Positions 16,079 to 18,606 of a DNA stretch of 60,185 bases are shown one piece after another. This DNA is from a virus (taxonomy: Duplodnaviria; Caudoviricetes). Position numbers and translations under genes: made by a program. How positions within the stretch are numbered: the stretch's first letter is position 1; each line of letters begins with the position of its first letter. The notes below the pieces were generated by a model. That model was not told the origin of the DNA and ran no database searches. It worked only from the letters and a program-made list of their open reading frames with translations. The stretch is from the IMG/VR virus record IMGVR_UViG_3300036766_000363, positions 1 to 60,185 of that record; one strand, given 5' to 3'.

Positions 16079-17647
16079 CTATAGTGCCACCCACCCCCAC
16101 CTAGAATCGGCTGTCCTTTCTAGTTGGCACCAAACCCCTCGTCCGCCTGTGAGTATGCGAGAGGCCTGTTCGTAGGGAATTTCTATGGCCTTTGCCACCT
16201 CCCCTTGGGGTGTGACCCCATTCAGGGAGAGGAATTCTTGAATGCGCTCTGCGTATTCATCCTCAGTCCCTGAGCGATTGAAAACGATAGGCCCATCGGT
16301 TCCGTTGAATCGAACAGACATTCCCCACGGCTGAGGCCAAGGCCCATTGCTATTTTTGGTGCAAATCCAGGTGATGTTGGCCTCGTCTCCGACAGGCTTT
16401 CCTGAAAGTCGCCAATTTCTTCCGTGAGGTGCGTACTGCCAGAAGGCGTTGCCGTACAATTTGGTGTCGTCTGCTGCGGGAACTTGTCCGATGACGAGTT
16501 TGGTGGGGACATTGACTCGATCAAGGGCGGCGAAGAACTTCATTGCTGGTGCCGGGTCTAGCATGTCCCCCGAAACCGCCCATCCTGCGGAGTCAACAAT
16601 CAGTAGCTCGGCCCCTGTCTCCTCGGCAGCGCGCCGGAGCCGCCTCACCTGGTCGGCCATCGGGATACCCCCACCGGGTATCCTGCGGATCGGCAAGTCC
16701 TCGATGATGGCGGGGTCGAGGCCAAGGCCCAAGAGTGCGCGGGCAATCCGCCGTTCCCAGTCTTCCTTGTTGCTCTCGTAGTCGAGAATCAGGACGGGGG
16801 AGGAGCGAGGCACCCGCCAACCGGCAAACGAGCCGCCAAGGGCCACTGAGACGGCGAGGAAGGCACTCGTCAGTGACTTCGTGCTGGCTGGGGGCGCAAA
16901 GAGGATGCTGGTCTGCCCCTCGGGCAGGATCTCCTCCACCAGGAAGGTGCGGGACGGGCGATTCTCGATGTACTCCAGCCGCTCCGTGATCTCCGGGTCG
17001 CGGACGGACTTGACGATTCGCCCCAGCCCGGTCGCAAGCAGGCGGGTCCACCCGAGTTCCTTGTTCCCGTAGTGATCGCCAAGTGCACGTACAAGCCCTT
17101 GCTTGGCCGACTCACTGAGCATGTTCAAGCGGAGGGCATAGGGTTCGTCCTCGATCCCCTCCACGCCCATGCTCACGGTCATCTCACAGGTTAGTTCGCC
17201 CTTGGCCCCGCTGAATATCTCGTCGGCATCGAATACTACTGGCCCTTCCGCCGAAGGGACGGTTACCCGGATATGGTCGTCCGCCACTCGTTCGAGCACG
17301 GGCTTGTCGGAGGAGAGCAGGTCATCGAGGACGCCACCCGCATTGAAGAAGTCCACACAGTCGGCCTTTGCGCTCTCCGCCCAGACAATGAGGCGCGTAG
17401 AGCGCGCGATGCCACGGAGATTGCGCTGGATCTCGGTTGCCCAGCGGAGGCCGGGGGCGTCGTTGTCGCGCCAGATGATTACGTCACGCCCACGGAGCGG
17501 TTCGCATTGTTCACGAGTCGGCACATCACCGGCTCCGCCTGGCCCGCAGACGGCCTGTTCGTTGCGCGCCCACATTGCCTTACAGCATTGCTCCCCTTCG
17601 ACCACCCATACGCGCTTCTGCTCGGCAGCGTACTCCTTGTCATTCAC
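16079..17647 (-). CDS. Primase-helicase, C-terminal part (TOPRIM plus RepA/AAA_25 helicase)
   Basis: VWVVEGE, WRDNDAPG, Walker A APPASTKS, LILDYE, LLIVDS; possible GTG start at 17647. Confidence 0.9.
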   Translation of the reverse strand: MNDKEYAAEQKRVWVVEGEQCCKAMWARNEQAVCGPGGAGDVPTREQCEPLRGRDVIIWRDNDAPGLRWATEIQRNLRGIARSTRLIVWAESAKADCVDFFNAGGVLDDLLSSDKPVLERVADDHIRVTVPSAEGPVVFDADEIFSGAKGELTCEMTVSMGVEGIEDEPYALRLNMLSESAKQGLVRALGDHYGNKELGWTRLLATGLGRIVKSVRDPEITERLEYIENRPSRTFLVEEILPEGQTSILFAPPASTKSLTSAFLAVSVALGGSFAGWRVPRSSPVLILDYESNKEDWERRIARALLGLGLDPAIIEDLPIRRIPGGGIPMADQVRRLRRAAEETGAELLIVDSAGWAVSGDMLDPAPAMKFFAALDRVNVPTKLVIGQVPAADDTKLYGNAFWQYAPHGRNWRLSGKPVGDEANITWICTKNSNGPWPQPWGMSVRFNGTDGPIVFNRSGTEDEYAERIQEFLSLNGVTPQGEVAKAIEIPYEQASRILTGGRGVWCQLERTADSRWGWVAL

Positions 17648-18020
17648 TATCCACGCTCCATTCGGAAATCCCTGCCGACTGCATGAGCATTTCACAGCCA
17701 CGGCAAACACCGCGCATCGTAGTGTCGCCGTTCTTCACGTAGACGTAGACGGTGGCCCCGTCCAGCGAGATGCCGTAGCGAGCAGCGGTCGCCACCAGGT
17801 TGGCCTCGGCGTGGACGGTGCGGACACAGTGCCCGCCCTCCATGACGCAGCCGAAGTCAGTGCAGTGATTCTTCCCCGGAGGGGCGCCGTTATAGCCGGT
17901 AGCGAGGACTTGGTGGTTCTTGACCGCCACAGCCCCAATGGAGGCACGAGGGCAGGATGCACGAGCAGAGACAGCACGGGCCATGTCCAAAAAATAGTCA
18001 GACCAGCAGGGGCGGGTCAT
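17640..18020 (-). CDS. dCMP deaminase (ComEB-like), inserted in the primase gene
   Basis: YFLDMA..VS.RASC, TGYNGAP, HAEAN, CxxC. Confidence 0.93.
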   Translation of the reverse strand: MTRPCWSDYFLDMARAVSARASCPRASIGAVAVKNHQVLATGYNGAPPGKNHCTDFGCVMEGGHCVRTVHAEANLVATAARYGISLDGATVYVYVKNGDTTMRGVCRGCEMLMQSAGISEWSVDSE

Positions 18021-18606
18021 ATGCCAGCCTTTCCACCCCGAATAGGGGGAGATCCTTCGTTGTCATCTTGCCCTCGTAGCCTGTCCAGCCAGTCCGGCCG
18101 GGCAACCGCCACAAGAACTTCTTCATCGGCTTGCCTTCCGCCGTCACTTGCGAGCGACTGTGCCATCTTGATTTTTGGGCGATTAACTCTCCCGCCTGTG
18201 ATCGGTAGTCGTACAGGTCCACCATCTCCCAGTTGTCCGTCGTCACATCCATAGGCGCAGGGGATAAAGGCGTGTGCTTCGTGGTAGGAGTCGGCATCTG
18301 GATAGACGAGGGCGATAGCGTCTTTACTGAAGTACGGCTCACTCCAATGCGGCGTGGAGGCGTCGAAGATGATGGGTTCGTCGAGGCCGCCGCCGATCCT
18401 TGGCCCCCGCCTCCACCTTTTCGTAGCGCGTAGATAACATCTTTGAAGGAACATCCTACCATACATTCCAGTACCCCTTTCTGACTGAGGCCCAGCGACC
18501 TGATTCGATCAGTATGGCTTGGGCAGTAGCTCATCACCCATGCGCCGGTCTTCTTGGGCCGGTCAAGCAGGGGGAATATCTCTTCGTAACTGGCGTTGTC
18601 GCTCAT
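17998..18606 (-). CDS. Primase-helicase, N-terminal part (Zn-finger plus primase core)
   Basis: CPSHxD..SL...CxxGC zinc finger, YDYR..G....KxR, KKF, LPLFG; TAATG-coupled start. Confidence 0.85.
   Translation of the reverse strand: MSDNASYEEIFPLLDRPKKTGAWVMSYCPSHTDRIRSLGLSQKGVLECMVGCSFKDVIYALRKGGGGGQGSAAASTNPSSSTPPRRIGVSRTSVKTLSPSSIQMPTPTTKHTPLSPAPMDVTTDNWEMVDLYDYRSQAGELIAQKSRWHSRSQVTAEGKPMKKFLWRLPGRTGWTGYEGKMTTKDLPLFGVERLAYDPPLLV

Follow-up and report, generated by a model that had tools for sequence, protein, structure and literature searches.

How a virus comes to carry a metabolic gene inside the gene for its primase-helicase is the question raised by one locus of IMG/VR record IMGVR_UViG_3300036766_000363, a member of the Caudoviricetes. 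The window analysed here is that whole virus record, a linear sequence of 60,185 nucleotides with a GC content of 0.593 and a CheckV completeness of 74%. On its minus strand, an N-terminal part of a primase-helicase (N-part), a complete deoxycytidine monophosphate (dCMP) deaminase and the remaining C-terminal part (C-part) follow one another in three different reading frames (Table 1). A sequence-only reading of this DNA had pointed out that the deaminase is bounded by two copies of ATGAC and that its removal would restore one frame. It had offered DNA excision, RNA splicing, ribosomal bypass or a two-chain primase restarted at GTG 17647 as explanations. All of its coordinates on the minus strand, and with them its open reading frames (ORFs), ATGAC positions, 377-nucleotide spacing, frame arithmetic and the proximity of a resolvase gene, were confirmed on the sequence. 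The restarted two-chain primase fits our results, and nothing was found for excision, splicing or bypass. We propose, with a probability of about 0.78, that the locus encodes a two-chain primase-helicase of the T7 gp4 type from overlapping cistrons, the C-part starting at GTG 17647.

Three genes in three reading frames

The N-part contains a Zn-binding motif (C28, H31, C48, C52), a variable linker rich in Ser and Pro, and the alpha+beta N-terminal subdomain of the primase core, which finishes in DLPLFGVERL. The pattern C28-x2-H31...C48-x3-C52 is invariant in nine of nine N-part sequences and was aligned with one-piece homologs; judged from the motif, it would form a Zn site. Against Pfam, the N-part matched Helic-prim_T7_N weakly and under the cut-off (E = 0.033). 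The C-part comprises a TOPRIM domain, a beta-rich middle region and a RecA-type helicase. Its TOPRIM residues E17, G18, E19, D61 and D63 (the E-G-E and D-x-D motifs) are invariant in all nine aligned sequences. The helicase matched AAA_25 (E = 1e-17, residues 229-383), and its Walker A motif, ...PPASTKS, is invariant in the alignment at P252, P253, A254, K257 and S258. Residues 9-104 align to positions 192-299 of an 801-position primase/helicase PHROG. Since this match starts only at position 192, about 190 residues are missing upstream of the C-part. When a primase-helicase profile was compared by sequence with PDB chains, no match was found at E up to 0.01.

The product of the insert matched PF00383 (E = 3.2e-16; 59.5 bits, cut-off 25), phrog_174 (E = 1.5e-30) and a solved dCMP deaminase, PDB 2hvv (E = 2.1e-25). 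The motif H70-A71-E72 was aligned with 2hvv, and C106-x2-C109 was read directly off the sequence. By these matches the 126-residue product is a solid member of its family and a predicted dCMP deaminase. It has 158 homologs, the best of them 67% identical. GC content and third-position GC content (GC3) are 0.617 and 0.724 in the deaminase gene versus 0.611 and 0.704 in the C-part, a likeness to its neighbours indicating that the deaminase is not a recent foreign arrival.

The N-part ends in ...LPLFGVERLA, followed by TAT (18021-18019), GAC (18018-18016), five codons more and a stop. The C-part begins GTG 17647, AAT, GAC (17641-17639), then KEYAAEQKRVWVVEGE..., and ends at 16079. Its frame is open from 17734, and the only in-frame starts upstream of E-G-E are GTG codons at 17710, 17701, 17695, 17647 and 17605. 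The two ATGAC copies lie 377 nucleotides apart; 377 mod 3 is 2, which is the offset between the N-part and C-part frames, and hypothetical removal of these 377 nucleotides would join the frames into a protein of 197 + 519 = 716 residues. The domains of a primase-helicase are not on one polypeptide here, the first frame stopping at 18000-17998 and the sequence restarting in another frame at 17647. On this strand, 16079-18606 contains no promoter-like site and a single, weak terminator-like site, at 16336-16323 within the C-part. Together with the overlaps between the genes, this suggests that the proteins are translated separately, and in a coupled way, from one transcript.

As the sequence-only reading had stated, the locus bears no signature of an intron, intein or transposase. 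An Rfam search of 15500-19200 at E up to 1 gave no matches and thus no group I or II intron. The insert lies in a third frame, the N-part end and the C-part start abut without extra segments, and no intein match was found in Pfam. The insert itself matches deaminase families only, with neither a transposase nor an endonuclease among its Pfam matches; the HNH_3 endonuclease genes of the record lie elsewhere (Table 1).

One gene in distant homologs, two in the clade

C-part homologs were sought among 5.8 billion proteins. Seven one-piece homologs of 679-695 residues cover 88-98% of the C-part at 40-45% identity, versus 90% identity for a split relative, P0002. Alignment to intact homologs, which the sequence-only reading had proposed, placed the two halves end to end along these one-piece proteins. 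In the joint alignment the N-part spans their first ~167 residues, up to an (L/W)(F/Y/W)G motif, and the C-part starts a few columns further on, just before V-x-x-E-G-E. A short variable linker aside, no segment has been lost or gained at the junction. In each of 21 loci that were fetched, the N match runs on into the C match in a single frame (L002 and L101 being one contig). We then considered 169 loci, the window included, with a match at the TOPRIM start. Upstream of TOPRIM the frame is open for 120-300 residues in 148 of them, for at least 300 residues in one and for 60-120 residues in eight; the contig end was reached in 11, and the one locus with fewer than 60 residues is the window itself. 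With those 11 set aside, 157 of the 168 other loci were evaluable, and in 149 of these, outside the clade, the frame is open for at least 120 residues. An N-part profile compared with 1.84 billion proteins gave a similar picture, 106 of the best 150 of 235 representatives having at least 400 residues. No similar deaminase was found in the fetched flanks of the 168 other loci (tblastn, E up to 1e-4). DNA of a close relative was not found among viral contigs in either a single-protein scan with the C-part or an alignment scan with the N-part; scans of other collections reached at most 39% identity in genome contigs and, among the matches listed, at most 47% in metagenome contigs. Altogether, the comparison argues that an ancestrally one-piece primase-helicase gene is here cut in two. 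The homolog alignment and the family matches thus uphold the earlier claim that an otherwise one-piece primase-helicase is interrupted by a complete dCMP deaminase.

The position of the cut was located on an AlphaFold model of the one-piece homolog P0009 (mean predicted local distance difference test score, pLDDT, 72.9). The equivalent residues, 166-174, form a coil that follows a short turn and leads into the first strand of TOPRIM (175-178), these blocks having a pLDDT of 79-85. The best PDB matches of this model are Twinkle and T7 gp4 (7t8c, 7t8b, 5ikn, 6n9w and 1q57; E 1.5e-12 to 1.7e-10), and E lies between 1.5e-12 and 5.2e-11 for 7t8c, 5ikn, 6n9w and 1q57. Differing domain orientations keep the template modelling (TM) scores low (0.22-0.35).

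Within the clade, nine related stand-alone N-part proteins were found (P0012-P0016 and P0138-P0140 among them), which are 176-197 residues long and 65-71% identical to the N-part of the window. All nine stop 2-6 residues past LPL(F/Y)GIE(R/K)L, and this common stop point indicates that the split is old and maintained. Eighty-five positions are invariant across the nine relatives, 44 of them in residues 1-66, five in residues 67-123 and 36 in residues 124-194. The conserved positions thus cluster around the Zn motif and within the alpha+beta block; the linker (67-123) varies, with insertions and deletions. Judged from this alignment, the pattern is that of a maintained protein, not of a decaying remnant. 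Separate halves are likely in two long relatives, paired by equal nucleotide size: P0138 with P0002 on a contig of 61,521 nucleotides, and P0016 with P0137 on one of 60,365 nucleotides. The C-parts of these relatives, P0002 and its cluster-mate P0137, were both called from MTRVFFVEGE. A further N-part, P0015, comes from a contig of 58,011 nucleotides. The sequence-only reading had named routine splitting of homologs at this point, with unrelated intervening genes and no conserved repeat, as grounds for giving up its idea. Within the clade this is largely what is seen, as all nine N-parts are cut here and P0017, the only relative with an apparent deaminase, has neither repeat copy; outside the clade, homologs are unsplit in 149 of 157 loci.

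The start 'MTR', shared by the deaminase and the C-parts P0002 and P0137, was considered as an insertion mark and dropped, T-R-P-x-W being native to the deaminase family (P0017, P0018). It is also contradicted by the C-part of the window, which keeps its own Q-K-R-V-W. The two halves diverge to different degrees: identity is 90% between the C-part and P0002 but only 65-71% between the N-part and its nine relatives, much of the N-part difference lying in the Ser/Pro linker. Given this unequal identity, a recombination breakpoint at the split is possible.

Primase-helicase genes may also be split elsewhere. In a distant phage contig (L007, 6436-8563), an 83-residue ORF for the Zn domain (6436-6687) precedes a 632-residue ORF for core plus helicase (6665-8563). 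The two overlap by 23 nucleotides in different frames, within a short repetitive codon run, and represent either a real split or a sequencing frameshift. Four short representatives of other 50%-identity clusters (P0160, P0201, P0275 and P0282) end no more than 25 residues past the end of the N-part profile (e.g. ...PLWGSELLA), either because their genes were split independently at this hinge or because their contigs break off there. A milder reading of the locus is that the hinge before TOPRIM, the boundary at which these four also end, may be a recurrent breakpoint and cargo site.

A proposed two-chain complex, the ATGAC pair and rival explanations

We hypothesize that a one-piece ancestor of the T7-gp4/Twinkle type was severed within its primase core, at the loop that links the N-terminal subdomain to the TOPRIM subdomain. 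The halves would be made as separate polypeptides from one overlapping gene string, in which the 70-residue ORF (joined through TAATG) is followed by the N-part, the deaminase (overlapping the N-part by 23 nucleotides) and the C-part (overlapping the deaminase by 8 nucleotides and starting at GTG 17647 behind GGAG). The C-part in turn overlaps the next small ORF by 22 nucleotides. The N-part, with its Zn domain and alpha+beta subdomain, would dock non-covalently on the C-part TOPRIM and rebuild the primase active-site cleft, the C-part would supply the helicase, and the assembled enzyme would be active. The dCMP deaminase would be an ordinary, independently translated nucleotide-metabolism gene occupying the gap.

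The two-chain complex, whose prediction had been suggested by the sequence-only reading, was modelled in three runs from C-part residues 1-135 and N-part residues 112-202. It reached an interaction prediction score from aligned errors (ipSAE) of 0.84 (runs 0.84, 0.84 and 0.82) versus 0.00 for the best control, a score that reflects likeness to solved one-chain primases and is not proof of binding. Of 80 solved complexes, 58 attained the 0.84 mark, as did two of 110 mismatched pairs. At least 85% of contacts were common to the runs, and partner pLDDT was at least 79. The modelled interface places N-part residues 183-195 against C-part residues 18-22, 31-37 and 43-51, and sets DLPLFGVERL against the EGE strand. 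Because the halves belong to one domain with solved one-chain relatives, the score may derive from those known structures.

The results do not support the weight that the earlier reading gave to frame restoration and to the exact ATGAC boundaries. On this strand ATGAC occurs 57 times, versus 58.8 expected. When the tail of the N-part (39 nucleotides) and the head of the C-part (103 nucleotides) were shuffled 5000 times, 3301 of the shuffles gave one or more in-frame matches of five nucleotides between them. A set of 164 mechanical ORFs, none shorter than 100 residues, has ATGAC at 7 of 69 ATG starts and at 12 of 88 TGA stops. No direct or inverted repeat longer than five nucleotides was found flanking the insert. 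A 10-nucleotide direct repeat with nine of ten identities (17634-17643 and 18057-18066) extends the 3' ATGAC, pairs it with another site and does not restore the frame; we take it as one instance of a repeat arising by chance. The closest deaminase, P0017, is carried on a Logan contig of 1,729 nucleotides, of the same size and source as the contig of the N-part P0013, and the two are probably neighbours. P0017 has Ala at the position of Met1 of the window protein, with 17 more residues upstream, and it ends in Trp (TGG), so that a G precedes the stop. Neither ATGAC copy is therefore kept, as deduced from the protein sequences together with the pairing of equal-size contigs. On these counts, the restoration of the frame by removing the insert is probably a coincidence, and the ATGAC pair probably serves no function today, having arisen through the tight overlap of start and stop codons or being, at most, the scar of an old insertion. 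It is very unlikely that the pair is functional, the 377 nucleotides being skipped in some genomes, transcripts or ribosomes to give a one-chain enzyme of 716 residues beside the two-chain form and the deaminase. If true, this would be a precise skip of the size of an ORF that needs no intron, intein or transposase.

Excision at the DNA level, between the ATGAC copies and by the nearby serine recombinase or by microhomology deletion, would regenerate the one-piece gene in some genomes. The 377-nucleotide deletion does restore the frame and would leave a linker of 16 residues, close to the 9-13 of one-piece homologs, and the resolvase gene lies 3.4 kb from the 3' junction. However, only five base pairs are repeated, with no longer direct or inverted repeats at the flanks; the repeat occurs at the level expected by chance and is missing from P0017; and the relatives retain a stop codon at the site. 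The resolvase gene lies on the other strand and outside the insert, among two HNH endonuclease genes and a restriction-enzyme fragment. The search for the joined form that the sequence-only reading had suggested was made in the assembled contigs of two runs, X1 and X2, and came back empty: no contig of either run joins 18020 to 17643, rare variants being able to drop out of contigs. In the Logan assembly of X1, record 4 (17691-20500) spans the first ATGAC and record 1 (15000-17714) the second, with 0 differences each. In X2 a near-identical phage is present as pieces of 151 nucleotides only, of which the piece 17999-18149 reaches less than 31 nucleotides past the first junction and was not counted as bridging. 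We regard excision as extremely improbable, and no less so recoding, by which splicing of the 377-nucleotide segment or a ribosomal bypass from GAC 18018 to GAC 17641 would yield one chain. The codons GAC at take-off (18018-18016) and landing (17641-17639) are indeed matched, albeit at chance level, and GGAG stands upstream of the landing codon, much as T4 gene 60 has matched codons around a gap in a replication gene and a purine-rich element before the landing codon. In T4 gene 60, though, the gap is untranslated, whereas the 377 nucleotides here encode a complete, conserved and separately startable enzyme. The T4 gap is 50 nucleotides, so that the gap here is 7 to 8 times as long. The codon after the take-off GAC is CCG and not a stop, and a take-off hairpin is lacking: junction RNA folds no better than shuffled sequence (z +0.63 and -0.44), with 146 of 200 shuffles as good or better at take-off (z +0.63). 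Added to the empty Rfam search, the N-parts of the relatives stop at this very spot, and P0017, the relative that bears on the matched sequence, has neither repeat.

Two further explanations concern the status of the N-part and of the contig. The N-part could be a non-functional leftover, with the C-part alone working as a TOPRIM-helicase and priming left to the host or to a gene in the missing quarter of the genome. We consider this unlikely. Completeness of the record is put at only 74%, the Pfam matches of the N-part stay below the cut-off and its expression is a prediction from the sequence, but all ten N-parts (window and nine relatives) are open, with their 85 invariant positions clustered and the linker varying by insertions and deletions. 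Moreover, the C-part retains the TOPRIM acidic residues, and the complex model puts DLPLFGVERL on the EGE strand. Elsewhere in the record no Prim-Pol, Toprim_3 or DNAG_N match was found, which is a weak point, as Toprim_3 also missed the TOPRIM of the C-part. As to the contig, a chimera joined inside or beside the deaminase gene has an almost negligible probability. The Logan contigs of X1 do break at 17691-17714, within that gene; yet the two contigs overlap by 24 nucleotides at equal depth (11 and 10.4), show 0 differences to the window and carry one ATGAC junction each. Since X1 may be the source sample, its contigs lend no independent support. The break leaves the deaminase ORF intact, and related contigs of other data sets have the same split N-part and C-part. 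The break itself may have arisen where the assembly graph branches into other deaminase genes of the sample.

Several points weigh against a two-chain primase-helicase as the product of this locus. The C-part start at GTG 17647 is a predicted one; gene callers took a later ATG (the call P0001), which lies after the TOPRIM glutamates. No RNA run was listed as containing the stretch, and the evidence comes from assembled contigs. By the protein comparison, what lies between the halves of the relatives is known only through the pairing of P0013 and P0017 by equal nucleotide size. The cut is inside the catalytic primase core and not between whole domains, and a limited literature search found no demonstrated activity of such a two-chain primase in any family member. 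Finally, ATGAC at both the start and the stop of one gene with the right frames is expected about 1 time in 1000, by post hoc arithmetic from the ORF counts, and the pair may once have had a role as an insertion scar.

Known split genes, genomic surroundings and significance

Among phage genes in pieces, as the available excerpt of PMC2988022 describes them, T4 gene 39/60 with mobA, Aeh1 nrdA with mobE and gene 43 of phages 25 and 44RR (43A/43B) are split into two polypeptides that reassemble, and start/stop overlaps of up to 23 base pairs occur in the T4, Aeh1 and phage 25 split genes. As here, inserted DNA divides an essential replication or nucleotide-metabolism gene, unbroken in relatives, into two cistrons whose products are expected to come together as one enzyme, and the overlaps suggest translational coupling. 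In that excerpt the insert is a homing endonuclease or an untranslated spacer, whereas here it is a dCMP deaminase. The interrupted gene here is a primase-helicase of the T7 gp4 type, cut in its catalytic core, and its reassembly is predicted by modelling. Fractured genes with split inteins and an inserted endonuclease, as far as the excerpt of PMC2677866 goes, likewise come from environmental sequence and have another gene between the halves of a broken one; here there are no intein halves, and the inserted gene does not encode an endonuclease. T7 gp4 and human Twinkle share the domain order seen here (Zn motif, alpha+beta subdomain, TOPRIM, RecA-type helicase). They differ in that two chains are encoded here, with a helicase that scores as AAA_25 and not as DnaB_C and no sequence-level PDB match. 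In a limited literature search we found no paper on metabolic-gene cargo in a primase-helicase cut within the catalytic core. The locus is of the same kind as the known phage genes in pieces; what is new is the metabolic-enzyme cargo and the primase-helicase gene cut within its core.

The split genes are housed in a minus-strand DNA-metabolism module (Table 1). Inside this replication module, a plus-strand islet at 11260-14248 looks like a patch of mobile or selfish genes. A 117-residue ORF (14390-14743, plus strand) matches only the last ~60 positions of restriction endonucleases of the BglI/SfiI type (E = 2.2e-19 and 2.9e-17). It adjoins the gene for an N6/N4 DNA methylase, and the two look like the remnant of a restriction-modification pair.

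Table 1. Coordinates of the split primase-helicase locus and of neighbouring genes in the 60,185-nucleotide window
Feature	Position	Strand	Remarks
Upstream Cys-rich ORF, 70 residues	18606..18818	-	TAA overlaps N-part ATG (TAATG); no Pfam family
N-part of primase-helicase, 202 residues	17998..18606	-	ATG 18606 to TGA 18000-17998
First ATGAC	18016..18020	-	Contains deaminase start codon; overlaps N-part codons TAT and GAC
dCMP deaminase, complete, 126 residues	17640..18020	-	ATG 18020 to TGA 17642-17640
GGAG, likely ribosome-binding site, judged from spacing only	17656..17659	-	8 nucleotides before GTG 17647
Second ATGAC	17639..17643	-	Contains deaminase stop TGA; overlaps C-part codons AAT and GAC
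C-part of primase-helicase, 522 residues from predicted GTG 17647	16079..17647	-	
HNH_3 endonuclease gene	11260-11814	+	
Imm5-like/DUF7666 ORF	11916-12473	+	
HNH_3 endonuclease gene	13068-13592	+	
Resolvase	13589-14248	+	
N6/N4 methylase	14745-15752	-	Same module as the split genes
C5 cytosine methylase	19033-20379	-	Module
VRR-NUC nuclease	21028-21456	-	Module
DUF4406 protein	22445-23164	-	Module
PD-(D/E)XK nuclease	24270-25028	-	Module

For annotation, such halves are easily mislabelled, as the call P0001 illustrates by beginning past the TOPRIM glutamates. If the two chains assemble, this clade would show that a DnaG/T7-type primase can form its active site from two polypeptides, with the chain broken at the hinge that joins the N-terminal subdomain to TOPRIM, and the locus would offer a natural design for split-primase experiments. 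The gaps of split genes in phages could then house ordinary metabolic genes, beyond selfish endonucleases, and an enzyme of the deoxynucleoside triphosphate (dNTP) pool would sit inside the replisome operon, under the same translational coupling.

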